A program made the translations under genes and the position numbers. The notes beneath the pieces were generated by a model, which was not told where the DNA came from, ran no database searches, and worked only from the letters and a program-made list of their open reading frames with translations. Below are positions 5,670 through 26,447 of a stretch of 26,496 bases of DNA, one piece after another. The DNA is from Promethearchaeota archaeon. Lineage in GTDB: Archaea; Asgardarchaeota; Lokiarchaeia; Sigyniarchaeales; SOKP01. Each line of letters begins with the position of its first letter. Within the stretch, counting starts at the first letter, position 1. The stretch covers positions 1-26,496 of the forward strand of contig JAEOSU010000064.1 in NCBI GenBank assembly GCA_016840165.1. The letters run 5' to 3'.

Positions 5670-7202
5670 ATGTTTATCGCAAGTCTTGATCTTGGTACGA
5701 CCGGAGTAAGAACATTTATTTTTGATATATCTGGAACTGTATTAGCGACAGATTATCAAGAATGGGAGAGTTTTTATCCTATCCCTTCATATGTTGAGCA
5801 GGATGCAAATTCATGGTGGAATTCGCTTAAAAAAACCATCGAAGCAGCTATTAAAAAAAGTGGCATTGATAAATCTGAAATTGTGAGTTTATCTGTGACC
5901 AATCAAAGAGAAACTATTGTTCCTATAGATAAAGAAGGTAATCCTTTACATAACGCATTAGTATGGCAAGATCGCAGAACTACAGATCAAGTAGAATTCA
6001 TCAAAAAGAAAATTGGTGCTGAAAAAGTTTACAAGACTACTGGTTTAACTATAGATCCTTATTTTTCAGCCACTAAGATATTATGGTTTAAGGATAATAA
6101 ACCCGAAATCTATAAAAAAGCGCATAAGTTTTTGTTAGTTTCTGATTTTATATTATTTAAGCTGACTGGTCAATTTTATACGGATTATTCTAATGCATCT
6201 CGGACTATGTTGTTCGACATTAATAAGTTAAAATATTCTGATGATATTGCATCTGATTTGGAATTAGATTTAGATAAAATGCCTGAACCCTTAAAAAGTG
6301 GTAAAGATATAGGAGAAATAAATACCGATGAAACTCTTTTTGACAAAAAAACCTTGGTAATTACAGGAGCGGGGGATCAACAATCAGCAGCATTAGGAGT
6401 GGGAGTTACTTCCCCAGGCACGATAAAATTAACAACTGGAACTGGCAGTTTTATGTTAGCATATTTAGAAAAACCTAATTTTGACCCAAAGAAGCGTGTA
6501 TTATGTAGTTGTCATGCTGTTCCTGGTGCTTGGGTTCAAGAAGCAAGTATTTTTACTACTGGAGCCTATTTAAGATGGTTCAGAGATGAAATTGCCTATG
6601 AAGAGTGTATTGTAGCAGAAGAACAAAATCAAGATCCTTATAATATTATATCTAAAGAAGCAAATGAGTCTCCTGTGGGTGCTAATGGCTTAATAACAAT
6701 CCCGCATTTAGTAGGAGCTGGAGCACCTCACTGGAATCCTTATGCGAGAGGAATTATCTTTGGATTGGCATTAGGGCAAAAAAGGAGAGATATTGCTCGT
6801 GCTATTCTAGAAGGAGTTGCTTTTGAAGTAAAGAAAAATGTTGAAGTATTTCAAGAATTAAATATCAAACCTGTCGAATTAATGCTAACTGGGGGAGGAT
6901 CCCGATCTGATCTATGGAATCAGATAATTTCAGACGTTTTAGGGATTATATGTGTAAGGAATGTCATTGAGGAAGCTACATCGTTAGGAGCAGCAATACT
7001 AGCGGCTTCAGGTGCAGGAATTTTCCCGGATATTGCCAAAGCAGCCGAAAGCATCTGTAAGATCGACAAAAAATGGTTACCAGATACAGATCGTCATTCA
7101 AAATATGATAAGTTATACCGGTTCTCTTATGATTTATATAATCTCTTGCAATCAGATAATATTTATACTAAATTCCAGGAAATTATACGGAACAAAGAGT
7201 AA
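5670..7202 (+). CDS. FGGY-family carbohydrate kinase (glycerol kinase/xylulokinase-like)
   Basis: DLGTT phosphate-1 motif, TNQRET, WQDRR, TDYSNASRTMLF, GDQQ, GTGSF, GAGAPHW and GGGSRS. TNQRET, WQDRR and NASRTMLF resemble glycerol kinase; substrate not certain. Confidence 0.9.
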   Translation: MFIASLDLGTTGVRTFIFDISGTVLATDYQEWESFYPIPSYVEQDANSWWNSLKKTIEAAIKKSGIDKSEIVSLSVTNQRETIVPIDKEGNPLHNALVWQDRRTTDQVEFIKKKIGAEKVYKTTGLTIDPYFSATKILWFKDNKPEIYKKAHKFLLVSDFILFKLTGQFYTDYSNASRTMLFDINKLKYSDDIASDLELDLDKMPEPLKSGKDIGEINTDETLFDKKTLVITGAGDQQSAALGVGVTSPGTIKLTTGTGSFMLAYLEKPNFDPKKRVLCSCHAVPGAWVQEASIFTTGAYLRWFRDEIAYEECIVAEEQNQDPYNIISKEANESPVGANGLITIPHLVGAGAPHWNPYARGIIFGLALGQKRRDIARAILEGVAFEVKKNVEVFQELNIKPVELMLTGGGSRSDLWNQIISDVLGIICVRNVIEEATSLGAAILAASGAGIFPDIAKAAESICKIDKKWLPDTDRHSKYDKLYRFSYDLYNLLQSDNIYTKFQEIIRNKE

Positions 7203-7328
7203 TTATAAATCATACCAATTTAACCTTCTTATTTTTTATTTAATATTACAATATTAGCTTAAATAATCAATTTTATATATTCTTATTTTTATAAGTTCGT
7301 TAAATATAGATAAAGAGGATAGAATTAA

Positions 7329-7916
7329 ATGATAGAAAATAAAAAATCTGACTATACACCAAGACAAAGGGCTGCAGGGGAATTATATTATATATTTATT
7401 GTTGCTGCTAGCATAATTACCATTGGAGGTATTGTTTGGTCAATCGTAGACATGTGGATGCCAACAGGAAAATTAGGAGCATTTTTAGAGTTAAATTTAG
7501 GATATCAAATAGCGATTATTGCTGGATTTTTAGCAGGATTGTTCTTTATATTGATATTTTTCTTCGGTCTTTTTAGAAAAGGAAGCATTCTCGTACTTAA
7601 ATTTTTATTTAAGACTCGACCTATTGAAGAGCGATTTAAAAATAGATGGGATGTTAAAATTGCAGCTGGAGGACTCTTAATAAGCATAATCGCGGTCATT
7701 GTAGGATTAATATATGCTTTAATTAACGATCTACTTCTAGGTCCTGGTAGTAGCGCGCCGTTTTCGAATCTTCTAAGCACCTTCACTTCGGGGAACTGGA
7801 CATTATTTATTGGTATCGCATTATATGCTGGCATTGCGATTACACTATTCATGGTTTATTTTTGGAAAAATGGTTATTATTTGATTTTAAAAATAATGGG
7901 TACCTTAGAAAAATAG
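7329..7916 (+). CDS. Hypothetical 4-TM membrane protein with apparent internal duplication
   Basis: Four long hydrophobic stretches, GAGGA SD upstream; both halves follow the pattern AAG-TM-D...G-TM-(F/W)xxG-x3-(V/I)LK. Confidence 0.75.
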   Translation: MIENKKSDYTPRQRAAGELYYIFIVAASIITIGGIVWSIVDMWMPTGKLGAFLELNLGYQIAIIAGFLAGLFFILIFFFGLFRKGSILVLKFLFKTRPIEERFKNRWDVKIAAGGLLISIIAVIVGLIYALINDLLLGPGSSAPFSNLLSTFTSGNWTLFIGIALYAGIAITLFMVYFWKNGYYLILKIMGTLEK

Positions 7917-8026
7917 ATCCATTCAAACAAATAATTTTTTCTCAAATTTAATCTCTTTTTTAATTCAAATCATTAATCTTGTGCTCTACCTTCATTTTTA
8001 TTAATCAACATTCTTACTTTTACTCA

Positions 8027-9547
8027 ATGCCCTTGAAGGTTGGAATTGTTTTTAATTATCTTCAGTTACCAGATGTATTACAATATCCATTTGTGATTAA
8101 TAAAAGAACAGATGATATTGTGATCAAAAAAGGCATGTTTGTCTACACAAATTCTTTAGAAGGTTTTCTGATTGGCATAGTAGAAAAAATCGTACTTTTA
8201 AACGAATATTTTTCAGATGCCCTTACCATAAAAGCCTACAATAATAATAGCAATCCCAATATCCTGAAAGGGCTTTTTCCAAGTGATGATTTTGAATATG
8301 CAATAGCGATTGTAAGAAATTTAGGAATCATTGAATTTTCGGCAAATTCAAAGGATTCTATAGAGAAAATTTCAAGAATGACATATCCTGCAAGCCCCGG
8401 AAAAGAAGTTTATCTAATAGAGAATAAAACACTTATCGATTTTATTGGTTTAGATGAGAAAAAAGGTTTAAATTTAGGCAAACTTAATTCAACGGATATA
8501 GAAGCCAAAATAAATATGGATCGATTGTTAAACAAACATTTTTCCATACTTTCTATATCAGGAGGAGGAAAAAGTTATTTAACATCAATTATTATCGAAG
8601 AGTTACTTACTCGAAATCCTTCCTATGGAACTCCAGCAATAATTTTAATAGATGTACATGGAGAATATACATATTTAAAAAATGTCAACAAAATCAAAAA
8701 TAAGGTAAAACTCATTGATATGTCATATTTTCAAGCTTCAGTGCCTCAAATGAGTCCCTATATATTCCGGAAGTATCAAGAGCAAATTTCACACGTTCAG
8801 ATTAGGGAATTAGCTAAAACTATTAAAAAATTACGTGAAAGAAAGGATAATAATGGTATTTATGGAATAAAGGATATTATAAAGTCAATTGAAAATGATT
8901 CAGATGGAAGTAAATCAACTAAACAAGCTTTAATAGGCTGGTTATCTGAATTAGATAGATTAACTATTTTCGGTCCTCAAGAAAATCCAACTTTAAATAA
9001 TATCGTAAATCAAGGTGAATTAATTATTTTTAACCTTGAGAAAGAAACATCAATTCGAAAAAAGCAAATTCTAGTTGACTATATCTGTAATCGTTTATTT
9101 TATTTAAGAAGATTGCAAAAAATTGCTCCTTTTTTGCTTATTATAGAAGAAGCTCACCAATTCTGTCCTGAAGCAGCTCATTCTAAAGCGTTATCTAAAA
9201 GTATTATCGAAACTATCGCACGAGAAGGAAGAAAATTTATGGCCTGTCTCTGTTTGATTAGTCAAAGACCTAAAAAGTTAAGTACAACGGCATTATCTCA
9301 GACTAACTCCAAACTAATTCTCAATATAAAGAATCCTTATGATCTTAAACACTTAATGGATAGTTCGGAAGCAATCACTAAAGATTTTACCGATATGATT
9401 TCAAGTTTGGGAGTTGGAGAAATGCTTCTAATGGGCAATGCAGTAAATTACCCGGTCTTCGTAAAAGTAAGAAAAAGGAATTTCAAATCAAATATGGAAA
9501 CAATAATTTTATCAAAAGTCTGTTTAAATTGGAAAATTGAAAATTAA
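8027..9547 (+). CDS. HerA/FtsK-family (DUF87) ATPase/helicase with N-terminal HAS-barrel-like region
   Basis: KHFSILSISGGGKS (Walker A), IDVHGEY, IIEEAHQF (Walker B), AREGRKF (Arg finger) and LISQRP. ATG at 8027 preferred over TTG at 7979. Confidence 0.88.
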   Translation: MPLKVGIVFNYLQLPDVLQYPFVINKRTDDIVIKKGMFVYTNSLEGFLIGIVEKIVLLNEYFSDALTIKAYNNNSNPNILKGLFPSDDFEYAIAIVRNLGIIEFSANSKDSIEKISRMTYPASPGKEVYLIENKTLIDFIGLDEKKGLNLGKLNSTDIEAKINMDRLLNKHFSILSISGGGKSYLTSIIIEELLTRNPSYGTPAIILIDVHGEYTYLKNVNKIKNKVKLIDMSYFQASVPQMSPYIFRKYQEQISHVQIRELAKTIKKLRERKDNNGIYGIKDIIKSIENDSDGSKSTKQALIGWLSELDRLTIFGPQENPTLNNIVNQGELIIFNLEKETSIRKKQILVDYICNRLFYLRRLQKIAPFLLIIEEAHQFCPEAAHSKALSKSIIETIAREGRKFMACLCLISQRPKKLSTTALSQTNSKLILNIKNPYDLKHLMDSSEAITKDFTDMISSLGVGEMLLMGNAVNYPVFVKVRKRNFKSNMETIILSKVCLNWKIEN

Positions 9548-9816
9548 TATGATTGAATTATAGCATCATCTTTAATATTTTGATTACGCTTATTATAAAC
9601 AATCATTTTCTTATTCTTAGAGACTCGAAAAACGTTGATAATATTTAAAGATTCCAATTTCATAAAAATTTCTTCAAGATACAATGAATTTACAAATGGA
9701 AATTCCTTCTTAAGGAGTTCTTCGATGCGTTTATCCAACATCTCGCCTTTATTTTTTATTAAAATATCAATAATAGAATTAATAACGGGTTTTTGATTCC
9801 AACGGTGTGCTTCTAT
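9544..9816 (-). CDS. Small winged-helix-like protein, probably 90 aa from an ATA start (ORF track gives 65 aa from 9741)
   Basis: The frame is open from 9741 up to TGA at 9823-9825. AGGTGA SD (9823-9828) lies 6 nt before ATA at 9816. The extended protein (M)EAHRWNQKPVINSIIDILIKNKGEMLDKRIEELL...FMKLESLNIINV...KKMIV has a three-helix plus wing pattern. Confidence 0.65.
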   Translation of the reverse strand: MEAHRWNQKPVINSIIDILIKNKGEMLDKRIEELLKKEFPFVNSLYLEEIFMKLESLNIINVFRVSKNKKMIVYNKRNQNIKDDAIIQSY

Positions 9817-9867
9817 AATACTTCACCTAAATAGTATATATAATCTATTTTTAATTAATTTTTCCTA

Positions 9868-12114
9868 TTAAATAAATAAACGATCTTCTTTAGACTTTTC
9901 AATAATTCGGCTCTTTAGATTTTTTCCGAATTGCTCGAACCATTTTATTAGTTCTGGTGTGATGGTAGGATGTAATATTTCCTGAGCTTTATTAAAATGA
10001 TCACTATTAACTTTTCTCGCTCTTATATTTTCTCTAAGAGCAATCATCGCGGCCTCACGGCATAAGGTTTCAATATCTGCGCCTGAATATCCTTTTAAAT
10101 TTTTACTCAATTCCTTGATATCAACATCACTACTTAAAGGCATATTTTTTGTGAATATCTTTAAGATTTCGAGTTTACTTTGCTCATCTGGAGGTGGGAC
10201 TAAGAGTATTCGATCAATTCTTCCCGGTCTTATTAACGCTGGATCTAATATATCTGGACGATTTGTAGCAGCAATTACTATAATATCTTTCTTTATTTCT
10301 AATCCATCAAGTTCTGTTAAAAATTGAGACAGCACCTTTTCTGATACTCCTGAATCCGACGTATGTCGACCTCTACTAGGTGCTATGGAATCAAACTCAT
10401 CAAAAAATATAATACATGGCGCTGCCATTTTAGCTTTACGAAAAACTTCCCGTATCGCTTTTTCACTTTCACCAACGTATTTTGATAATAGTTCTGGACC
10501 CTTAATTGATATAAAATTTGCTTTACTTTCATTAGCAACGGCTCTCGCCAATAAAGTCTTTCCACAACCTGGAGGACCATATAATAATATTCCTTTAGGA
10601 GGATTTATGCCCATTCGCTCAAAAATCTTAGGATTCGATAATGGCCAATCAACTGCCTCAATTAGCATCTGTTTTAAATCATTTAATCCCCCTATACTAT
10701 CCCACGTCTGATTAGGTACTTCAACAAATACTTCTCTAATTCCTGAAGGTAAAACTTCCTTAAGGGCTGTTTTAAAATCCTCTAAAGTGACTTCTATAGA
10801 ATCCAATAACTCAGGATCAATATTATCGGATTCTAGATCAATTTTTGGTAGATATCGTCTTAATGCTGACATTGCTGCTTCTCTCGCTACCGCTGAAATA
10901 TCCGCACCAACAAAACCATGTGTTATGTTAGCAAAGTTTTTTAAATCAATTTGTTCATCTAACGGCATATTTCTTGTGTGAATTTGAAATATTTCTCTCC
11001 GACCTTTTTCATTTGGCACTTTAATTTCAATTTCTCGATCAAATCGTCCAGGACGCCGTAAAGCAGAATCCAAACTATTTGGTCTATTAGTAGCTCCAAT
11101 AACTATCACTCTCCCCCTACTATGTAATCCATCCATTAACGCTAATAATTGAGCTACGACTCTTCTTTCGACTTCTCCGGTGACAGTTTCTCTCTTAGGG
11201 GCAATAGCGTCTATCTCATCGATAAAAATGATTGAAGGGTTCTTTTCTTCTGCTTCAATAAATATTTTCCTTAATTTTTTTTCAGATTCTCCATAGAATT
11301 TACTCATTATTTCTGGACCATTGATAGAAATGAAGTGCGCCTCACTTTCATTTGCAACTGCACGAGCTAACAAAGTTTTACCACATCCAGGAGGTCCTCT
11401 AAGTAGAACTCCTTTCGGAGGGTCAATACCTAAGCGTTTAAATAAAGAGGGATGCCGAAGTGGTAACTCCACCATTTCCCTTACGCGCTGTATTTCTCTG
11501 TCTAATCCACCAACATCTTCATACGTGACATACTCTGGACCACCCTCCTCACCTTCAGTAATATGCTCACTTATATGTAGATTAGTCTCTTGTTCAATCT
11601 TGCATATCCCACTCGGTTTCATACTAATTACTTTAAAAACTATTTCCCTGCTAATACCAATAGAAATGTAAATATAATCATCAATAGTTGCGGGATAATT
11701 ATTCAATTTACGCTTAACAAATGTTTCAAATTTTGGATTGGTTTTAAGCTTTATTTTGGATGGTGCTAATACTATACTCTGAGCAGTTTGAGTTTTAATT
11801 TTTCTAATATCGATCATATCATCGATAGCAGTTCCGGTGTTCTTCCGAATTCTGGGATCAATACGAATTATACCTAATCCCTCATCTTGAGGATAACTTG
11901 GCCAAGCAATCCCTGCGCTTAATTTCTTTCCAAATAACGCAATGACATCACCAGCCTGCATTTTTAATTGTTCCATAGTTTTACGATCAATACGAATAAT
12001 ATTCCGTCCATAATCTCTTTTTTTAGCGTTTTGAACACGTAAAGATACCTTTTCCGAATCAGTTTCGAAAATCTTTTCTTTCTCATCACTTTTCTTATCA
12101 TCTGTAGGGGTCAT
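9868..12114 (-). CDS. cdc48: CDC48/VCP(p97)-family AAA+ ATPase
   Basis: N-domain plus two AAA modules, each with GPPGCGKT, Walker B (IFIDEID / IFFDEFD) and SRH (ATNRP...RPGR). Confidence 0.97.
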
Positions 12115-12192
12115 ATTATATCTTCACTATAAACCTAAGTTTTCTTAATTATTTGAATTATTAATTTTGTAAAAACTTTTCTCTATTTTTGC

Positions 12193-13248
12193 TTAGTTCT
12201 TTTTAAAGAAATCATCTAAAGATGCTTGTCTTTTGGAAAGATCTTGCTTTTTTATTTGCTTTAAAGCATTCTTTACTCTTTGAGAGGAGAAGTTATGCTC
12301 TTCAATTAGTAGCTCTTCAACTTTATCATAATTAATTCCCCTCCATTTTGGCTTGGTATAATTCTGGTTCACATTTGGCTTTAAAAAAATCTCCTTAATC
12401 TCATTAACAATATCTAGACTAATATCTATAGATTTATTCCTAATGGTTATATTGTTCCTTATAATATTCTCCAATGATCCGTGTTTTTTTATTAGATCTA
12501 AGGCCGTATGTTGCCCGATACCCTTTATGCCAGGATAGAAATCAGTTCCAATTAATATGCCCATTTCAATTAATTGTTCTCGATTAATATTAAGCTGTTC
12601 TAAAAATTTTGATAATGAAATATACTCGATATCCACACTAGTAGTGGTATCTTTAACTTTTCTAGTTCTAGTTATTGCAAAGTTACGGATTAACCGTTTA
12701 GCACCAAATAAAAGGGAATCATAATCTTGGGACCCGCATGCCCAAGCATCTCCTTTACTAACAAGGTAAGCGGCTTGAGCTTCGCCTTCAGAATCTGCTT
12801 GAATTACAGGTATTCCGAGATATTCAATCAACTTTTTACTTTCTCTGATCATACTTTCATTTAGTGTGGATGAGTATTGAGCATATCGCATTGCTTTTTC
12901 GAAATCTTCCTTTTCTTGGGCCTCGACCATTTTTTCGCGAGCCTCCTTTTTTCCTTTCTTTCTTTCTCTTATTGTGTCCAATTTCAATTCTGAGGGCGTT
13001 CCATCAAAAACATAAATAGGCTTTATATTATGTTCGAGAAAGTTAAGAGTCCTATAAAACAATCCAGAGAGGTGAGAAGTCACATTTCCTTCATAATCTT
13101 TCAATGGAGTGCCATCTTTTTGCCTAATTATAGCCAAAAATTGATAAATAGTATTAAAGGCATCAATTGCAATTTCCTTATTGAGTAAGTTTTCAAAGGA
13201 TATTACTTTTCTTGTTTTGCTTACCAATTCATTTATTTTTGTGCCCAT
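12193..13248 (-). CDS. fen: Flap endonuclease 1
   Basis: MG start, IAIDAFN..YQFL, TSHLSGLFYR, YVFDG, EGEAQAA, SQDYDSLLFG, GTDF.PGIKGIG (H3TH) and C-terminal PIP box QASLDDFF. Confidence 0.97.
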   Translation of the reverse strand: MGTKINELVSKTRKVISFENLLNKEIAIDAFNTIYQFLAIIRQKDGTPLKDYEGNVTSHLSGLFYRTLNFLEHNIKPIYVFDGTPSELKLDTIRERKKGKKEAREKMVEAQEKEDFEKAMRYAQYSSTLNESMIRESKKLIEYLGIPVIQADSEGEAQAAYLVSKGDAWACGSQDYDSLLFGAKRLIRNFAITRTRKVKDTTTSVDIEYISLSKFLEQLNINREQLIEMGILIGTDFYPGIKGIGQHTALDLIKKHGSLENIIRNNITIRNKSIDISLDIVNEIKEIFLKPNVNQNYTKPKWRGINYDKVEELLIEEHNFSSQRVKNALKQIKKQDLSKRQASLDDFFKKN

Positions 13249-13314
13249 TCTTTATCTTTTACCTTATTATTCAATAATTATGTAGTATTATTCATTTATA
13301 TTTTACACGTTATT

Positions 13315-13863
13315 TTATTCCCTTTTTTTAGGTCTTCTTTTTAATTTTGACCCACAAACCTCACAATACTTCAAAATATTCTCAGTAGAATATTTTTCTT
13401 TACAAGATGGACAATAAAGCTCAAATATTTTTTGATTTTTTATTCCCTTTTTGAAGATTGAGTTGAATTTTATATTCATCTCCGAACAGAGGTTCTGAAC
13501 TGTATAATCATTTGAATATAATGTGACTTCTTCTCCAGAAGTCTCCATTAATTCTAACGCTAAAGCGATTAATTCAATATCTGCTTTTGAAAGAGCATTA
13601 ACATCACCTGTGATTTTAGAAGCATCTAGTGTTCTATTTATATACTCTTCTTTAGGATCTCTAATAATTAGTTGTTCTTTGTTTACTGCTACTTCGATCC
13701 TATTGATGATATTTCGATTTTTGTTTTGATACTTTAATACTTTAATCTCATCAATGATTTTATGAGTAGTATACATTTTTTCTTTAAAGATATTAATATC
13801 TATTCCTTTCAGGAAGATATTTGTATCAATAATGAGAATTGAAATCTTCTTCTGGGCTATCAT
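13315..13863 (-). CDS. nob1: Nob1-family PIN endoribonuclease with Zn ribbon (SSU rRNA maturation)
   Basis: IIDTNIF, DE, TGD...LS.AD..LIALA, NDYTVQN, CPSC...CEVCGS.L.R. Overlaps the NAD kinase 3' end by 38 bp. Confidence 0.88.
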   Translation of the reverse strand: MIAQKKISILIIDTNIFLKGIDINIFKEKMYTTHKIIDEIKVLKYQNKNRNIINRIEVAVNKEQLIIRDPKEEYINRTLDASKITGDVNALSKADIELIALALELMETSGEEVTLYSNDYTVQNLCSEMNIKFNSIFKKGIKNQKIFELYCPSCKEKYSTENILKYCEVCGSKLKRRPKKRE

Positions 13864-14752
13864 CTAAAGGAACTCTTATTGTACCAATGATTTTTTTCCT
13901 TAAGCGTCTAAAATAATTATCACTGAGACTTCTAGAAAACCGAATAAAATTAGAGTGTGCGTTAGCTTTTCGGATTTTTATAACTGTATTAGGAGATACG
14001 TTTCGAAAAGATTTTTGACCGTCAATAACAACATCCGCGTCTAATCGATGTCTTAATAGTTTAATTTCTACCTCACTTTCAATGGGCAAAATGATTGGTT
14101 TTAAACCAGACCGCGCAAAACTATTTAAAGGGGTTAGCTGCATGATATCTAATGAAGCATTGACAATAGACCCTCCCGCACTTAAGTTATAAGCTGTTGA
14201 ACCCGTGGAAGTAGAAACAATAACCCCATCTAAATAACTTCTATTCAGAAAAACACCATCTATCTTTACCGATACTAGTAATACTTTAGTACTCTTTGAG
14301 GATATTACCAGAACTTCGTTTAATGCATTATCCAGCTTATGCTCCTCATTGTTTTTAATGATATAGGCTGCGATTTTACTACATCTTTCTAAAATATACT
14401 CCTTTTTAAGTGCTCTTCTTAAATCATTAAAAATCGTTCTTTCATTAGATTCATCTAAAAAGCCCAGAGAACCAATATTAACTCCAAGTATTGGTGGAGG
14501 ATTCACTTGAGGTAAACTATTTGCTACTCTTAAAATAGTTCCATCTCCTCCAATAGAAATAATAAATTTTGTGTTTTGAGAATTCATCTCAGATAGATCT
14601 TTTCCACTATGAGGTAAAATTTTAGGGGAAATTCTAGTTTCTAAATATACAACTTCACCTTTCTTTACCAAGAATTCAAAAACTTTCTTAGTTAAATTAA
14701 TAGCCCTTTCTGAATCCATCCGACAAGCTAATGAAATCGCTTTTTTTTCCAT
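13826..14752 (-). CDS. nadK: NAD(+) kinase
   Basis: GGDGT, GVN.GSLGFL, ALNE, DGVIVSTSTGSTAYNLSAGG. Confidence 0.95.
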   Translation of the reverse strand: MEKKAISLACRMDSERAINLTKKVFEFLVKKGEVVYLETRISPKILPHSGKDLSEMNSQNTKFIISIGGDGTILRVANSLPQVNPPPILGVNIGSLGFLDESNERTIFNDLRRALKKEYILERCSKIAAYIIKNNEEHKLDNALNEVLVISSKSTKVLLVSVKIDGVFLNRSYLDGVIVSTSTGSTAYNLSAGGSIVNASLDIMQLTPLNSFARSGLKPIILPIESEVEIKLLRHRLDADVVIDGQKSFRNVSPNTVIKIRKANAHSNFIRFSRSLSDNYFRRLRKKIIGTIRVPLDDSPEEDFNSHY

Positions 14753-19589: not shown

Positions 19590-21098
19590 ATGAATAATCC
19601 AAAAGAAAAGATCATATCAATTGATATATCGTCAAATTCTATAAAAATAGGCTTAATTTCGGATAATTTAAGGGTAGACTACTTCACTAGACAAGATCTT
19701 AAAATATATAATGAAGATATAGACGGTTTTGCGAAAAGAATCGATATGGATGATTTATGGCATAAAATTAAAATTGGATTTAAAGAGATTACTAGAAGAT
19801 ACATATCAGATAATATTAAAATAATTGCGATCTCCACCTGTGCTCAAAGGATTGCTAGTGTTTTTTTGGATGAAGCCGGAAAAACTATTTATGGAGGACC
19901 GAATACGGACATAAGAGGTATAGATTCAGGCTATTTAATTGAAGATGCTTTCTCTGAAGAAGAATTATTTGAAATAACAGCACATAATCCCTCAATATTA
20001 TTTTGCTTAGCAAGGTTATTATGGTTCAAAGAAGAGGAGAAGGAGAGTTACGATAGAATTAAAAAAGTATTGATGCTCGACGATTGGATAGCGTATAAAC
20101 TTACGGGAATTTTCTGTACAGATTTAACGTCTTTAGCAGAGTCTCAATTAATCGATATAAAAAAAGCTAATTGGAGTTCAGAGATTATAGAAGCGTTTAA
20201 CTTAAATTATGACCTTTTTCCACCAATTGTAGATTCGGGTTCTCAGATTGGGTATTTAAAGCCAGACTTAACTCGAACCTTTGAAATAAATAATGGAAAT
20301 ATCCCTATTATTAAAAATGGAGCAGATACTCAAGCATCTTTACTAGGAATGGGCGCGATTGAAAAAGGAGATTTAGGGATTAGCATGGGAACCACCACTC
20401 CATTACATCTGGTATTAGAAAAACCCTATATTGACCCTGAATTGACTTTTTGGACGTCTTTTCATTCAATTCATAATAAATGGATTCTTGAATCTCATGC
20501 AGGTAACACTGGCTCGTTATACAATTGGTTTAAAAACTGTTTTTTAAATAGATTTTCAGAAGATTCAGATGCTCTTATAGACACATTTCTTAAAAAATCA
20601 AAGCCCGGCGCATTATCAACCTTTTCTTATTTAGGTCCTGAACTTATGAACCTTAAAAATCAAACTTCAATAAAGCGAGGAGCATTCGTATTTCCTCCTC
20701 CCATGATGATATCAGATGTATTGCCGGTGTTAGATGATTTTGCTCGAAGCATTATCGAGAATATTGCTTTTGGAATCTATGAAAATTATCAAGCACTCCA
20801 GAAATTTCAAATTTCAAAAGTATTTTGTGCAGGTGGCATGAGCAAATCAAGAGAAATTTTGAAAGTTCTCGCAAATATATTAGGTACAAATCTAATTATT
20901 CCTGAATATAAAGACTCCTCATTTATAGGAGCAGCTATGAGTGCTCTGAAGACTTTACAATACTATGAGAATTATAAATCAATTATTGATGAAAATATAA
21001 AGTTTGAAACTATAGAAAATGATGCTTCTCTTATAGAAAACTATTCACAAATATATCTACAGTGGAAAAATATTAAAAATAAGATTGATAATTTGTAA
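19590..21098 (+). CDS. FGGY-family sugar kinase, YoaC/LsrK-like subgroup
   Basis: SIDISSNS (variant phosphate-1 motif), STCAQR, PNTDIRG, DWIAYKLTG, GADTQ, GTT, AGGMSKS. Confidence 0.82.
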   Translation: MNNPKEKIISIDISSNSIKIGLISDNLRVDYFTRQDLKIYNEDIDGFAKRIDMDDLWHKIKIGFKEITRRYISDNIKIIAISTCAQRIASVFLDEAGKTIYGGPNTDIRGIDSGYLIEDAFSEEELFEITAHNPSILFCLARLLWFKEEEKESYDRIKKVLMLDDWIAYKLTGIFCTDLTSLAESQLIDIKKANWSSEIIEAFNLNYDLFPPIVDSGSQIGYLKPDLTRTFEINNGNIPIIKNGADTQASLLGMGAIEKGDLGISMGTTTPLHLVLEKPYIDPELTFWTSFHSIHNKWILESHAGNTGSLYNWFKNCFLNRFSEDSDALIDTFLKKSKPGALSTFSYLGPELMNLKNQTSIKRGAFVFPPPMMISDVLPVLDDFARSIIENIAFGIYENYQALQKFQISKVFCAGGMSKSREILKVLANILGTNLIIPEYKDSSFIGAAMSALKTLQYYENYKSIIDENIKFETIENDASLIENYSQIYLQWKNIKNKIDNL

Positions 21099-21185
21099 TA
21101 GCCTTTTTATGATATTCCATATAATTAAATTATATTATTCTATTCTTTGAATTAAATCTCAACTAAAGTTATTGGTGATAATAGG

Positions 21186-21533
21186 TTGTCTTTTAGCAAT
21201 ATAAAATCATGTTTGAAAGAAATAGAAGATCGATATAATACCAATGAAAATGTGAAAAAAAAGTTAGCTAATTATGATGAGCCAATTCAAATTACATTTC
21301 TTGATACAAATCGCTCAATCTTATTGCTAATTAATAAAGATCAAGGGATCGAAATTAAAGATAACTTTAATGATGAGAATGCGGCTGTGAAGATTGAATT
21401 CACTTCCGAAAAGGTGATGCTTGATTTATACAATAAAGAAGTCGGAGCTGTAAAAGCATACTCTACTGGAAAGATCAAGGTTGTTGAAGGAAAAATTCGA
21501 AATTTGATGAAACTTAAAAGTTTGATGTTTTAA
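21186..21533 (+). CDS. Stand-alone SCP2 sterol/lipid-carrier domain protein
   Basis: 115 aa with the SCP2 C-terminal signature AVKAYSTGKIKVVEG...LMKL..L. TTG start with GGTGA SD at 21174-21178. Confidence 0.78.
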   Translation: MSFSNIKSCLKEIEDRYNTNENVKKKLANYDEPIQITFLDTNRSILLLINKDQGIEIKDNFNDENAAVKIEFTSEKVMLDLYNKEVGAVKAYSTGKIKVVEGKIRNLMKLKSLMF

Positions 21534-21615
21534 TTAGTTATGAATCATTTTTTTGTTTAATTCATTTTGTATAAAAAAAATTTGAATCATTTAGAATAAT
21601 AGAGGTAAAAATAAC

Positions 21616-23298
21616 ATGAAAGCATTAATAACAGCTAGTCTAACTAAAAGTTCTTTAAAAGAGTTAGAAAAAATTATGGAAGTAACCTACGAGAGCTGGA
21701 GAGATACAGGAATTATATATTTTGATGCTAATGAGTTACTTGAAAAGTTAAATGGTTATGATATTTTTATTACTGCTGTTGATGATTTAAAAAAAACAGA
21801 GTTTTTTGAGCATACCGATTTGAAGCTAATTATAACTTGTAGAGGAGACCCTTTTAATTTAAACATTGAAGCTGCTAATAAAAAAAAAATACCAATCCTC
21901 TACACTCCTCTAAGGAATGTTGATGCTGTTGCGGAATTAACCATTGGATATATGATTAGCTTAGCAAGAAATGTAACAAAGTTAGATAGGTTTTTGCATT
22001 CCGAGGACTTTAGTATAATTGATTTTGAGGATTGGATTGATATTTATAATAGATTTATGGGAACAGAATTAATAAATAAGAAAGTTGGCATTATTGGTTT
22101 GGGAGAGATAGGTCGTAGAGTGGCTAAAATTACACAATCATTTGGATGTAGAAACCTAATCTTTGATCCCTATGTAAACGAAGAATTTGTAGCAGATTTT
22201 GGAGAGAAAGTAGATTTAGACAAACTTCTAAAAGAATCTGATTTCATTACGATTCACGCAAGAGCTACAGATGAGAATGATAATTTAATCGACGAAAAAA
22301 GGATTACGATGATGAAAGAAACCGCTTACCTCCTCAACTTAGCAAAAGGGAGTCTTGTTGATTATGAAGCGCTTTTTAACGCTTTAAAAGAAAAAAAGAT
22401 TGCTGGTGCGGCTTTAGATGTATTCCCTCTTGAACCAATCGATGAAGATAACAAATTCCTACAATTAGAGAATGTCATTGTGAGTCCTCATCTTGGAGGA
22501 AACACAATTGAGGTCATTCAAAGACAATCAGAAATGATCCTTAAAGGAATCAAGGCTTGGCTAAATAATGAGATTCCAGCTAATATTTTGAATCCCGAAG
22601 TATTAAACCTTCATACTAAGGAAAATATAAAATACGATAAAGATCTATTTAGTAAGAAAAAAGAGATATTAGCTATTTGTAAAAAGCTATTAGAAGAAGG
22701 ACATGTTATAGGATCCGCAGGAAACGTAAGTATGCGTGTATTATATAATAAACAAGAACTTATTTTAATTACTCCGAGCAATGTAAGATATGATACTATG
22801 AAACCTGAAGACATTTTAATAATAAATTTAGAGGGAAAAGTTATTGAAGGAGAGAGAAATCCATCTGTGGAAAAACATCTTCATTTAGGTATCTATAAAG
22901 CTCGTGATGATGTTAATGCTATAATACACTCTCACGGTATATATTCGACAATATTAAGTACTTTAAAATTATCTTTACCTCCGATCATTGAGGAGTTAGT
23001 ACCATATTTAGGAGGTGAAATCATTTGTGCTGAATATGGTGAAGCTGGTACGGAAGAATTAGCTCATAGTGTAGTGAAAAGTCTTGAAAATAAAAATGCG
23101 GTTTTACTCGCCAACCATGGAAATATTTGTTGTGGAAGCCATTTAGATGGTGCTTATATGGTTCTTAGATATTTAGAACGAGGTGCAAAAATATATTACT
23201 TAGCTAAGCTATTAAAAGATCCAACTATGCTTCCAGAAGATACTATTGATTATGAGAAAGATATTTTCGAAATTTTTAAAGAATCAAAAAAAATTTAG
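21616..23298 (+). CDS. Fusion: D-isomer-specific 2-hydroxyacid dehydrogenase (N-terminal) + class II Zn aldolase/adducin domain (C-terminal)
   Basis: N-terminal domain: AVAE, GIIGLGEIG, FDPY, AALDVF..EP, SPHLGG. C-terminal domain: GNVS.R, ITPS, PSVE..LH..IY..R.DVNAIIHSH, LLANHG. Confidence 0.92.
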   Translation: MKALITASLTKSSLKELEKIMEVTYESWRDTGIIYFDANELLEKLNGYDIFITAVDDLKKTEFFEHTDLKLIITCRGDPFNLNIEAANKKKIPILYTPLRNVDAVAELTIGYMISLARNVTKLDRFLHSEDFSIIDFEDWIDIYNRFMGTELINKKVGIIGLGEIGRRVAKITQSFGCRNLIFDPYVNEEFVADFGEKVDLDKLLKESDFITIHARATDENDNLIDEKRITMMKETAYLLNLAKGSLVDYEALFNALKEKKIAGAALDVFPLEPIDEDNKFLQLENVIVSPHLGGNTIEVIQRQSEMILKGIKAWLNNEIPANILNPEVLNLHTKENIKYDKDLFSKKKEILAICKKLLEEGHVIGSAGNVSMRVLYNKQELILITPSNVRYDTMKPEDILIINLEGKVIEGERNPSVEKHLHLGIYKARDDVNAIIHSHGIYSTILSTLKLSLPPIIEELVPYLGGEIICAEYGEAGTEELAHSVVKSLENKNAVLLANHGNICCGSHLDGAYMVLRYLERGAKIYYLAKLLKDPTMLPEDTIDYEKDIFEIFKESKKI

Positions 23299-23497
23299 TA
23301 AATCCACTAAATATTATTTAAATTTTCTTTAATTAGTTCAAATTTTCAAGATTTATAATGAATATAATAAAATTAAGCAATTATAATTAAATTATGAAAG
23401 ATTATTAAGGAATATTACTTGACTATTTAATAAATCTTAGAGGGAAAGCCTCACAATTAATATCTTAATTGCGTGAAGACAAAGGGTGAATTAAACG

Positions 23498-25567
23498 ATG
23501 GAGATAAATGGTGTTATTGTTCCCTCTTTGACCTTTTTTGACGAAAATCAAAATATAAATAATGAAGTTCAGAGTCTTTTGATAAAACATTTGCTCATAA
23601 ATGGTGCTGATGCTATACTACTTCTCAGTCTGATTGGGGAAGGCTTACTATTTTCTGACGATATCGAGCAAACATATAATTTAATTGATCTCACTTATGA
23701 AGCAACTGGAAAAAAGACACCAATTCTTTTAAATATTCTTGGAAATGATGAAGAAAATAGAATTAGTAAATTAAATGAATTCGGAAAAAAATATTCAAAC
23801 TTAGCTTTTGTCCTTCCTCCACCGCTTTATAAAAAATACTCATCTTCTGAATTGATTTCTTACTTTGAAAATATCTTTAGTTCAATTAATATAAAAAATC
23901 CTATAATACTCCATAATAATCCTATTAAGTTTCATGAGAACGAATTGACTCCTGAAATAGTTACAAAAGTAAGAGAATTTTCAAATATGAGAGGGCTCAT
24001 CGATGATTTTGAAAATATTAACTATGCCAAGTTTTATTCTTCAATCATAAGTGATAAATTTTCAATATTTTGTTCTAATGAAGGAAACTTTCAGAAATAT
24101 TTCCAAATAGTCCCTCCAGAGCATCATAAAACAAGTGGTATTGTTCCGAGCATCAGTAACTTGGTTAATTTATGCTCTAAAATTTACTATTGCGCATTAG
24201 AAGAGAAGTTATTGGAATTACACCAATACCAAGATGATTTAAATGACCTTCACACTAAAATTTATGATCCAAAAATCGATCTAGGAAAAGTACGTAGGGG
24301 TTTAAAGTATGCATTTCTTTATCTTTATAAAGATATATTATCTACTCCATTAAAATATAATTATAATATATCTCCTGAACTTCAGAGAGATTTAGATGAC
24401 ATCACGATAGGAAGAATTAATGCAACTATTAATTATTTAATTAATCAAAAATATATTTATAAGCTATATTCGCTAGGTAAACAACAGATTTATCAGCTTA
24501 ATGATATTATAAAAATTTTTTCCGATGTCAAAGTTTTGCTAAATCAAGGGAAAATTAAAAAAATAATTGGGCCTTATTCCGCAAACTTTAATACAATTTA
24601 CCGAGTAAACTTTGAGAAATCAAAAATATTATTTCGATTTCGGACTTCAGAATATTTTAGATCAGAAGAAATGATTAAAGAAAAGCTCATATTCCCCTTA
24701 TTAGATGGTACCATTAATAGTAGCGTATCTAATTTTCGAGAGATAATAAAACCCTTTCTACGTTCTAATAAAGGGGAGTATATTTTTAAGGAAAATAAAC
24801 CACCTATTATCCCTGTAAGCAACTTATTATATTATGATGAAACTAAAGAAAAAATCCCTTATAATTTCAGTATTCAAGAATATATACGCGGGAAATCTTT
24901 AAATGAGATTTTAGGGGAAAGTATGAATTTTTCAAAATCTAAATTTTTGAATCTATTTTATAATATAGGTGATATTTTAGGAAAAGTTCATAGTATAGAA
25001 TTTAATTATTTTCAAGAAACTTTATATGATATTGCTAAAGAAGGAACAGATAATTGGTTAGATATTTTTGAACCACAATTACATATAGAGATTCAAGAAT
25101 TAAGAAGAAATAAATTTGACATTGATAAAGAACTTTCCAAATATTTCAAAGAACATGAATCGCTTATAATGGATGATCAAACTCCAGTTTTAATTCATAA
25201 TGATTTTCAACTAACTAATATTATAGGAAAAGAGGAATCAGGCAAAATTAATATAACAGGGATAATTGATTTTGACGATTGGAGTATTGGAGTGAAAGCT
25301 CAAGATTTTGTAAAACTCTATTTTCTTACATTTAATGTAATCAATAACCCAGATATTCTAAATTCATTTCTAAGTGGTTATAAAAATCATCATACCATCG
25401 AACCGGATTTTGATAACAAAATTAAGCTTTACACAGCTTTTTGGTTATTAAGAATGTTAAATTATGAATCATTGAAGAAAGAAAACGAGAAACCTCTAAT
25501 CTCGAGATCTTACTCTAATGAAACAGCTTATTATCTAGAAGAATTAAAAAAAATAATATCTAATTAA
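23498..25567 (+). CDS. Fusion: degenerate DapA/NAL-family TIM barrel + aminoglycoside-phosphotransferase(APH)-like kinase
   Basis: N-terminal domain: GVIVPSLTFFD, NGADAI...GE, VLPPPLY, PIILHNNP. C-terminal domain: NTIYRV, IQEYIRG, LGKVH, LIHNDFQLTNI (Brenner motif), GIIDFDD. GGGTGA SD at 23484-23489. Confidence 0.85.
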   Translation: MEINGVIVPSLTFFDENQNINNEVQSLLIKHLLINGADAILLLSLIGEGLLFSDDIEQTYNLIDLTYEATGKKTPILLNILGNDEENRISKLNEFGKKYSNLAFVLPPPLYKKYSSSELISYFENIFSSINIKNPIILHNNPIKFHENELTPEIVTKVREFSNMRGLIDDFENINYAKFYSSIISDKFSIFCSNEGNFQKYFQIVPPEHHKTSGIVPSISNLVNLCSKIYYCALEEKLLELHQYQDDLNDLHTKIYDPKIDLGKVRRGLKYAFLYLYKDILSTPLKYNYNISPELQRDLDDITIGRINATINYLINQKYIYKLYSLGKQQIYQLNDIIKIFSDVKVLLNQGKIKKIIGPYSANFNTIYRVNFEKSKILFRFRTSEYFRSEEMIKEKLIFPLLDGTINSSVSNFREIIKPFLRSNKGEYIFKENKPPIIPVSNLLYYDETKEKIPYNFSIQEYIRGKSLNEILGESMNFSKSKFLNLFYNIGDILGKVHSIEFNYFQETLYDIAKEGTDNWLDIFEPQLHIEIQELRRNKFDIDKELSKYFKEHESLIMDDQTPVLIHNDFQLTNIIGKEESGKINITGIIDFDDWSIGVKAQDFVKLYFLTFNVINNPDILNSFLSGYKNHHTIEPDFDNKIKLYTAFWLLRMLNYESLKKENEKPLISRSYSNETAYYLEELKKIISN

Positions 25568-25571
25568 TGAT

Positions 25572-25940
25572 TTATTGATATAGAACGCATACTATTAAGG
25601 GAAAATTCCACGGAACTTTATCGCCGCTATAAATTAAGGATTTTACTTCATCCGAGGCTTCAATATTGGAATGATCTTTAAAAACTTTCCAAGAAAGTTT
25701 ACCGATTATGCCCTCATCATTTAAAATATCACTAAAATTTTCTTTAATCCCTGCCCAGTAAATCCTTTTTTTATCCATTATTTCTTTTAAATCATTCAAC
25801 TGAACTAATTTCTCCAACACAATATTCTCACTTACATTTGTAAAATATTTAGAGAATTTGCTTCCCATTTCATCGGGAGAACCTAAATTTCTATTATATA
25901 AAAACACTATTCCAATCGATTTCAATTCTATCCCATCCAA
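25572..25940 (-). CDS. Hypothetical protein
   Basis: 122-aa ORF with TTG start that fills the gap between two genes and has globular composition. No family recognised. Confidence 0.65.
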   Translation of the reverse strand: MDGIELKSIGIVFLYNRNLGSPDEMGSKFSKYFTNVSENIVLEKLVQLNDLKEIMDKKRIYWAGIKENFSDILNDEGIIGKLSWKVFKDHSNIEASDEVKSLIYSGDKVPWNFPLIVCVLYQ

Positions 25941-26036: not shown

Positions 26037-26447
26037 CTACCAAAATGCTTTTCGAAATCGGTCTATAGTTTCTTCTAAACTTCCCTCAATTTCCTCTTCA
26101 AACTTTTTAAAGATGCTTACATCATTGTCCCAATTCTTTAACATTTGCGGAGGATACAATTTAAAGAACTTTTCAACGATTTCTTTTAATTCTTCCATTA
26201 TTTTTTTTTCTTTTATTTTTTTAGAAGAATTTGCGATGAATATTAGATTGTTTTTTTTTAATAGTGTGAATCTCTTATCATGTAATTCAAAATTTGATAA
26301 ACCATCTTTTACAACCTCTTCTGCAAACGAATTTAAAGCAGAAAACAAGCTTCCAAATAACTGATCATCAAAGTTTTCATCATAAATACGATGATATAAT
26401 ACAATTCCCGCTTCTGTTAAAATCCAAATATCCTGCAGAACTTTCAC
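26037..26447 (-). CDS. Longin-like domain protein (eukaryotic signature protein type)
   Basis: IWIL..AG.VLY.R (beta-beta), D.QLFG.L.SAL.SFA (helix), three beta strands ending LIFIA, then two helices ending F..F...I. This matches the longin topology. GTG start. Confidence 0.72.
   Translation of the reverse strand: MKVLQDIWILTEAGIVLYHRIYDENFDDQLFGSLFSALNSFAEEVVKDGLSNFELHDKRFTLLKKNNLIFIANSSKKIKEKKIMEELKEIVEKFFKLYPPQMLKNWDNDVSIFKKFEEEIEGSLEETIDRFRKAFW

Follow-up and report, generated by a model that had tools for sequence, protein, structure and literature searches.

A dihydrodipicolinate synthase-like barrel without its Schiff-base lysine, joined to an APH-fold kinase in a family-level clade of Asgard archaea

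Why should a catalytic domain that has lost its catalytic residues be kept in front of a kinase that retains its own? The question is raised by one gene in a 26,496-nucleotide stretch of DNA from Promethearchaeota archaeon (assembly GCA_016840165.1, contig JAEOSU010000064.1), referred to below as the window. The gene is a single open reading frame (ORF) in which a barrel of the dihydrodipicolinate synthase/N-acetylneuraminate lyase (DHDPS/NAL) type is joined to a kinase of the aminoglycoside phosphotransferase (APH) fold. It is a lineage-specific fusion, belonging to one family-level clade of Asgard archaea and derived from a two-gene module. We give an even chance to the explanation that the product is an APH-fold small-molecule kinase carrying what is left of its former aldolase partner, a barrel that is dead but kept by selection. 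The features on which the argument rests are as follows.

23498..25567, plus strand: the whole ORF, DHDPS/NAL-like barrel and APH-fold kinase fused (689 residues plus stop).
23484..23489, plus strand: Shine-Dalgarno-like GGGTGA, 8 nt 5' of the ATG, read directly from the sequence.
23498..24460, plus strand: (beta/alpha)8 barrel and C-terminal helical part of the DHDPS/NAL fold, catalytically dead (residues 1-321; Pfam, Foldseek).
24461..25564, plus strand: bilobal APH/eukaryotic-like small-molecule kinase fold (residues 322-689; model, VIA).
23630..23635, plus strand: codons of Leu45-Ile46, in place of the carboxylate-binding Thr-Thr of GTTGE (SLIGE in the window; alignments).
23912..23914, plus strand: codon of His139, replacing the catalytic Tyr (Tyr133 of E. 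coli DapA; YNxP has become ILHNNP; alignments).
23999..24001, plus strand: codon of Ile168, replacing the Schiff-base Lys (Lys161 of E. coli DapA; GIK(D/C) has become GLID; alignments).
25196..25219, plus strand: catalytic loop H567-N-D569-F-Q-L-T-N574 (HNDFQLTN, the HxDxxxxN motif; alignment to APH(2'')-IIa).
25268..25276, plus strand: D591-F-D593 (IIDFD), with the Mg-binding Asp of the DFG-like motif (alignment to IDFGD of APH(2'')-IIa).

The upstream gene is followed by a 200-nt AT-rich spacer, the Shine-Dalgarno-like element and the ATG of the fusion. A scan around the gene for sigma-70 promoters and intrinsic terminators, which is ill-suited to archaea, gave nothing better than shuffled sequence. 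Both halves are recognised by Pfam, as DHDPS (PF00701) on residues 3-256 (E 2.6e-18, 66.2 bits versus a cut-off of 22.1) and as APH (PF01636) on residues 436-625 (E 2.8e-13, 50.6 bits versus a cut-off of 23.2). The full-length AlphaFold model, built on 47 homologues, has a mean pLDDT (predicted local distance difference test) of 83 and resolves into a barrel of eight strands with C-terminal helices and, after it, a bilobal kinase; the kinase domain modelled alone has a pLDDT of 85 and a predicted TM-score (pTM) of 0.85. Compared with structures of DHDPS, NAL and 2-keto-3-deoxygluconate (KDG) aldolase, the barrel gives Foldseek TM-scores, normalised to the target, of 0.80-0.88. Prediction of docking between barrel and kinase domain returned a score of 0.00 against a mark of 0.32, and nothing is concluded on the packing of the two halves.

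The active-site motifs of the barrel were placed with HMMER against solved KDG aldolase and DHDPS, and with MAFFT against the genome's own DapA and Lys-bearing relatives. A first-pass annotation of the window had read SLIGE, ILHNNP and a Lys-to-Ile exchange in an N-terminal DHDPS/NAL barrel, and a retained HxDxxxxN and DF(D) in the kinase. The former is upheld by Pfam and by the HMMER and MAFFT alignments and the latter by the alignment to APH(2'')-IIa, while superposition places the barrel on DHDPS, NAL and KDG aldolase and the other half on APH-fold kinases, as had been proposed. The only correction concerns the equivalent of Tyr107, Tyr111, which is present in the window's copy. The canonical (I/L)YN(V/I)P aligns over ILHNNP, and the Schiff-base Lys normally lies at the end of strand 6 (GxK[DE]). 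In the AlphaFold model the barrel strands comprise residues 5-9, 39-42, 76-79, 103-106, 136-140, 164-169, 188-192 and 213-215. None of the eight contains a Lys, so that a substitute at the Schiff-base position, on whose absence the earlier reading depended, is not found, and Schiff-base catalysis by this barrel is excluded.

The barrel is also remote from DapA itself. It scores 61.7 bits against the DapA model TIGR00674 (cut-off 206), while the genome's true DapA, which adjoins DapB on contig C89 and carries GTTGE, YNVP and GIKC, scores 297 bits. The whole subfamily to which the window's barrel belongs falls far below the cut-offs of all NCBIfam equivalogs (52-85 bits versus 206 for dapA), and has motifs of its own: YNNPxxFGGN, a 6-residue insert before G-x-V-P-S-I-x-N, and GKxQRGLK. 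A second DHDPS-family gene of the same genome (G000), at L008:1480-2967 (plus strand) on contig C12, is likewise a fusion; its 495-residue product combines a canonical Lys-bearing DHDPS barrel (residues 8-289, 258 bits) with a formaldehyde-activating enzyme (Fae) domain (residues 334-491).

The kinase half looks catalytically competent, in that, as far as its sequence can tell, it keeps every motif residue for phosphoryl transfer. Its VIA matches have Z-scores of 18-21 over 250-316 residues, the top one having a Z of 20.8 and root-mean-square deviations being 3.5-3.9 over about 285 residues. Those to APH(2''), 25-hydroxysteroid kinase, FN3K, APH(4), homoserine kinase and macrolide kinases are effectively tied, lying within about 2 Z of one another, and sequence identity to the matched APH-fold structures is only 10-22%. 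A profile search of the PDB with the kinase half recovers 3csv alone (E 1.7e-5). A resistance phosphotransferase acting on aminoglycosides or macrolides was considered and rejected, the NCBIfam scores being 14-24 bits against cut-offs of 625-640.

The fusion is widespread within a narrow group. Searched against 5.8 billion clustered proteins, the window's protein gave 156 matches; among the 120 listed, almost all are 660-710 residues long with both domains, at 41-99% identity, and the named sources are all Asgard metagenome-assembled genomes. From the phylum, 151 sampled genomes were queried with the single protein and with a kinase profile, to the same outcome: the fusion occurs in 13 of the 25 other genomes searched from the window's GTDB family (7 of 12 in its genus) and was not found in the 125 genomes searched from 26 other families. 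A pattern scan of 185,579 species genomes yielded 92 relatives, nearly all labelled Asgard among the best 80, which were examined further: 71 are fused, 5 are split into two genes and 4 are cut by contig ends. Each of the 71 fused genes is an uninterrupted ORF of about 690 residues. The Schiff-base Lys column in these is Asn in 34, Ile in 29, Lys in 4, Asp in 2, Val in 1 and deleted in 1. The fused clade has thus, as a rule, lost the Lys (67 of 71), a point that the first-pass annotation had put up for checking. An apparent 1009-residue triple fusion with the downstream IMPase-family gene (L048:2903-5929) was discarded, since a stretch of N in the scaffold had produced it.

The source of the fusion is shown by the split forms, which are its Lys-bearing sister group. 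When a profile of the kinase half was run against 1.84 billion representatives, 17 proteins were found at E <= 1e-30, with scores dropping from at least 284 bits for members of the family to about 110 bits for everything else; the top group comprises the fused proteins together with stand-alone kinases of 385-420 residues. Eight split loci are available, three from a metagenome index (L013, L016 and L017) and five from species genomes. In all eight the barrel gene lies directly 5' of the kinase gene on the same strand, with gaps of 37 nt in L013, 17 nt in L016 and 6 nt in L017, and in all eight the barrel retains S/T-T-G-E, YNNP and GxKD, that is, an intact Lys, Tyr and Thr loop. The barrels of L013, L016 and L017 carry the subfamily motifs YNNPxxFGGN, VPSIxN and GKAQRGLK, and keep S-T-G-E, the Tyr and GIKD.

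The order of events was taken from a tree of the kinase domain alone, rooted on the split forms and with the barrel columns excluded. The fused proteins form one clade (SH-aLRT, the Shimodaira-Hasegawa-like approximate likelihood ratio test, 99). Its first branch, P0077, still has the Lys, as does a second clade that is nested among the other fused proteins. The Lys column requires 7 state changes on this tree. The order of events is thus a single fusion, after which the Lys was lost independently on at least three or four occasions. The first-pass annotation had regarded separate genes in relatives as a sign that the fusion was an assembly artefact or a one-off; such loci do exist, but neither is implied, the split forms being the sister group. 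Attempts to name the ancestral aldolase by NCBIfam and PDB searches with the Lys-bearing barrels gave only weak and roughly equal matches, to DapA, KD(P)G aldolase, KdgD, HpaI-like proteins, YagE and NanA. A 225-residue family is encoded on the same strand 5' of the barrel gene in four split loci (L017:1435-2112, plus strand, L024, L025 and L026), directly upstream of it in L017, L024 and L025. It has faint helix-turn-helix-like matches only and no Pfam match, and its recurrence suggests a three-gene ancestral unit.

Loss of the active site has not released the barrel from constraint. Between the window's gene and its relatives P0003 and P0005 (87% and 80% identical), the ratio of nonsynonymous to synonymous substitution rates (dN/dS) is 0.10-0.14 in the Lys-less barrel and 0.18-0.19 in the kinase. 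Purifying selection on the Lys-less barrel is at least as strong as on the kinase, and the low ratio indicates that the barrel is functionally constrained. The constraint is unevenly spread. When the positions of the barrel are ranked by entropy across 41 Lys-less proteins, the equivalents of T44, T45 and Y133 come at the 91st-95th percentile. The six Lys-bearing fused proteins all share T45 and Y133, and five of them have Thr at the T44 equivalent. Five polar positions, N148, D169, C192, N221 and N224, are invariant in both groups; a sixth, N140, never varies among the Lys-less proteins, and most of the Lys-bearing ones have His there. These six positions sit at the C-terminal ends of strands 5-8. 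An invariant polar set beside a decayed pyruvate site leaves room for a structural role or for a residual, non-pyruvate subsite.

These observations can be joined as follows. In the ancestral module, a DHDPS/NAL-superfamily gene for a class I (Schiff-base) aldolase would have preceded one for an APH-fold small-molecule kinase. The two were fused once, and the barrel then repeatedly lost its Schiff-base Lys, its catalytic Tyr and its Thr-Thr loop. The present protein may be an ATP-dependent kinase for a small hydroxylated metabolite, most probably a sugar or sugar acid of the kind that the ancestral aldolase and kinase would have handled in consecutive steps. The barrel, being non-catalytic, would be kept as a structural part, a scaffold for folding or oligomerisation, much as DHDPS/NAL barrels form dimers and tetramers. 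Alternatively, it may still offer a surface that binds the non-pyruvate part of the former substrate, an option suggested by the invariance of the six polar residues while the pyruvate subsite decays.

Several observations weigh against the view that the protein is a working small-molecule kinase with a relic barrel. The ATP-anchoring position on beta3, usually a Lys, is occupied by Arg380 (Arg in 44 of 47 relatives and Lys in 3); the kinase half also has conserved E390 and E395, candidates for the helix C Glu that pairs with beta3. The kinase half is matched by no specific functional subfamily: NCBIfam and Pfam on 47 relatives, Foldseek, VIA and ESM Atlas features all lead to generic APH clusters only. 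The presence of the gene in only about half of the other genomes of its family and genus, as counted above, indicates that it is dispensable. A further point concerns the relatives. In 16 of 66 Lys-less fused forms the catalytic Asp (D569, giving HNN) and/or the Mg-binding Asp (D591, replaced by Gly or Asn) is also missing. Pairs of such double-dead genes nevertheless have intact ORFs and dN/dS of 0.14-0.18 in the barrel and 0.19-0.27 in the kinase; domain boundaries are imperfect in some of these pairs, L032/L042 and L072/L083 being the clean ones. Since these genes remain under selection, the selected function in that sub-clade is not phosphoryl transfer, and it could also be the real function of the window's protein.

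That the whole protein is a pseudoenzyme, whose selected function after the fusion is non-catalytic (scaffolding, binding of a ligand or partner, or regulation), is therefore the chief competing explanation, although we consider it unlikely. The window's kinase motifs would then be a leftover awaiting erosion, or would serve nucleotide binding only, and the double-dead genes would represent the later stage of a stepwise degeneration, barrel first and kinase second. However, the His, Asp, Asn and Mg-binding Asp are all kept in 50 of the 66 Lys-less fused forms, including the entire Ile clade to which the window belongs, and in the species survey also in 4 of 4 Lys-bearing fused and 5 of 5 split forms. 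The losses are limited to the Asn clade and its derivatives, and no partner is known. There is a small but appreciable chance that the family as a whole records the stepwise conversion of a two-enzyme module into a conserved non-catalytic protein, the dead shell having been recruited in one Asgard lineage as a regulator, a scaffold or a ligand- or nucleotide-binding switch; the window's protein would be an intermediate still binding or turning over ATP.

The idea of the first-pass annotation, that the dead barrel senses a metabolite, would make it a sensor of pyruvate, lysine or a keto-deoxy sugar acid that switches the kinase allosterically. Such allosteric sensing is a known role of pseudoenzyme domains, and both the strong purifying selection and the invariant polar set on the C-terminal face of the barrel would suit it. 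Yet the residues that bind the 2-oxoacid in this superfamily (Thr-Thr, Tyr and Lys) are, in Lys-less relatives, among the most variable of the barrel, which argues against a conserved 2-oxoacid sensor. The position of the substrate-binding Arg138 of DHDPS (Lys144 in the window's barrel) is not conserved, there is no evidence of a regulatory output, and the 16 relatives lacking kinase Asp residues tell against the idea as well. Altogether a sensor is decidedly doubtful.

The kinase half might instead act on proteins, either as SrkA/YihE does or, like FN3K, on protein-bound groups. Its best NCBIfam match is indeed the SrkA/YihE protein kinase (NF008738), at 27.7-29.5 bits; 26 of 47 relatives match Pfam Fructosamin_kin (PF03881, best E 2.2e-10), a model to which the window's own protein has no match at E <= 1; and FN3K structures are among the top folds, with Z of 19-20. 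However, the SrkA score is far under the family cut-off of 194 bits, on which ground this candidate was set aside, and the FN3K structures are tied with many small-molecule kinases. A metabolic role is favoured because the ancestor was the operon partner of an aldolase, and a protein kinase thus carries little probability.

Some nominal pseudoenzymes prove to have migrated catalytic residues, and the barrel could in principle still be an enzyme by Schiff-base-free chemistry, using a migrated residue or a metal, with N140, N148, D169, C192, N221 and N224 lying invariant at its catalytic face. This is very improbable: not only is there no strand Lys, but the catalytic positions vary freely between close relatives, and the invariant residues are also present in Lys-bearing relatives and are thus not replacements for the catalytic ones. 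Finally, in spite of the patchy distribution and of one visibly decayed locus (L015/L095), an assembly artefact, a one-off fusion or a decaying pseudogene is refuted for the window's gene by the uninterrupted ORFs in 71 independent species genomes, dN/dS well below 1 in both halves and a 99%-identical copy in other assemblies. The decayed orthologue, at L015:6302-8182 (plus strand; the same record as L095), stands in conserved synteny. Its barrel lacks the residues equivalent to about 165-262, its kinase has HNN and NFE, and its frame has no ATG, GTG or TTG near the start.

The surroundings of the fusion form a block of strong synteny: IF5A, SRP54, a TrmY-like gene, dihydroorotase, AMMECR1, a variable insert and the fusion, and then, in some arrangements, a metallophosphoesterase, followed by an IMPase-family gene, DinB on the opposite strand and a 224-residue class II aldolase. 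The neighbouring features in the window, given as context only, are listed here.

19590..23298, plus strand: upstream cassette of three genes, forming the variable insert.
19590-21098, plus strand: FGGY sugar kinase.
21186-21533, plus strand: SCP2-like protein.
21616-23298, plus strand: D-2-hydroxyacid dehydrogenase (PGDH/GhrB-like) fused to a class II FucA-like aldolase in a single 560-residue ORF.
25572..25940, minus strand: convergent 122-residue gene without Pfam or NCBIfam match; 21 of 71 fused loci have it directly 3' of the fusion.
26037-26447, minus strand: 136-residue protein matching the first longin domain of FUZ/MON1/HPS1 (PF19036, E 6.5e-8).

The cassette of dehydrogenase-aldolase, FGGY kinase and SCP2-like protein stands upstream of the fusion in many relatives and is missing from several loci, including the Lys-bearing ones; an SCP2-like ORF, which travels with the dehydrogenase-aldolase, is present in the 4 kb before the fusion in 40 of 71 fused loci. 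Downstream, in 26 of 58 loci, the IMPase-family gene shares the strand of the fusion and starts 15-140 nt 3' of it; genes on the minus strand separate the two in the window's lineage. In split locus L013 a class II aldolase directly follows the kinase. Since the fused genomes all come from a single family-level clade, the neighbourhood is treated as synteny with a carbohydrate or sugar-phosphate flavour, not as pathway evidence. Salvage of methionine or 5-deoxyribose, in which an MtnK-like kinase is accompanied by a class II aldolase, was considered and rejected: the upstream amidohydrolase is a dihydroorotase, not a methylthioadenosine (MTA) or 5'-deoxyadenosine deaminase, and no MtnK model was matched.

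Some flanking families are conserved in their own right. The 122-residue downstream protein is conserved at 52-56% identity. A family of about 190-262 residues without Pfam match (L012:6064-6795, minus strand; L003:7080-7664, minus strand; L016:7207-7995, plus strand) is encoded 5' of the fusion, and divergent from it, in 41 of 71 fused loci; in L016 it comes directly 3' of the split kinase. The genome's own copy, L019:8597-9325, lies in a sugar-utilisation cluster (L019, G000 contig C103:4000-22000, ORFs 5734-14682) that encodes an MFS_2 transporter, a sulfatase, this homologue of the 243-residue fusion-flanking protein, a GH31 glycosidase, a fucose-isomerase-like protein, a 3-hydroxyisobutyrate-dehydrogenase-like reductase and a TAL/FSA-family aldolase. 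We take this gene set to resemble a sulfoquinovose degradation cluster of the sulfo-transaldolase type. The longin-domain protein of the window, being of a eukaryote-signature type, is consistent with the Asgard origin of the DNA.

Both domains come from well-known superfamilies, and the architecture that combines them has no characterised member, in agreement with the first reading of the window: no solved structure covering both was found among the sequence or fold matches, and full-text literature searches retrieved no paper on it. With the DHDPS/NAL class I aldolases (PF00701; archaeal KD(P)G aldolase 4uxd and 2yda, E. coli YagE 2v8z and 3n2x, DapA 1dhp, and NanA), the barrel shares the fold and the C-terminal helical domain. 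The Thr-Thr/Tyr/Lys set of these enzymes is kept in the Lys-bearing relatives and missing from the window's barrel, whose subfamily differs further in being fused to, or paired with, a kinase. The other half has the bilobal fold, HxDxxxxN and D-F-D in common with the APH kinases (PF01636; APH(2'')-IIIa/IVa, APH(4)-Ia, 25-hydroxysteroid kinase, FN3K, homoserine kinase type II, choline and ethanolamine kinases), but at the low identity given above and with no subfamily standing out.

Pairs of a lyase and a kinase are familiar from sugar-acid catabolism, as in NanA with NanK or KD(P)G aldolase with KDG kinase. The ancestral split module has the same two-step logic, although its kinase is of the APH fold and not of the ROK or PfkB type, and in the window the lyase half is dead.

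Proteins of roughly 690 residues from this family are currently labelled 'dihydrodipicolinate synthase family protein', which is misleading for most of them, since no Schiff base is possible and the real DapA is encoded at another locus. In practice the finding matters little outside one Asgard clade. As in other multidomain enzymes with pseudoenzyme domains, an inactivated domain is held under purifying selection beside an active one; unlike the general case, every stage is extant, from the split active pair through the fused active form and the dead barrel to proteins in which both halves are dead. Because all of these intermediates survive in related genomes, the family is a clean natural example of how a pseudoenzyme originates, and the question why a dead catalytic domain persists can be tested directly with a handful of orthologues.

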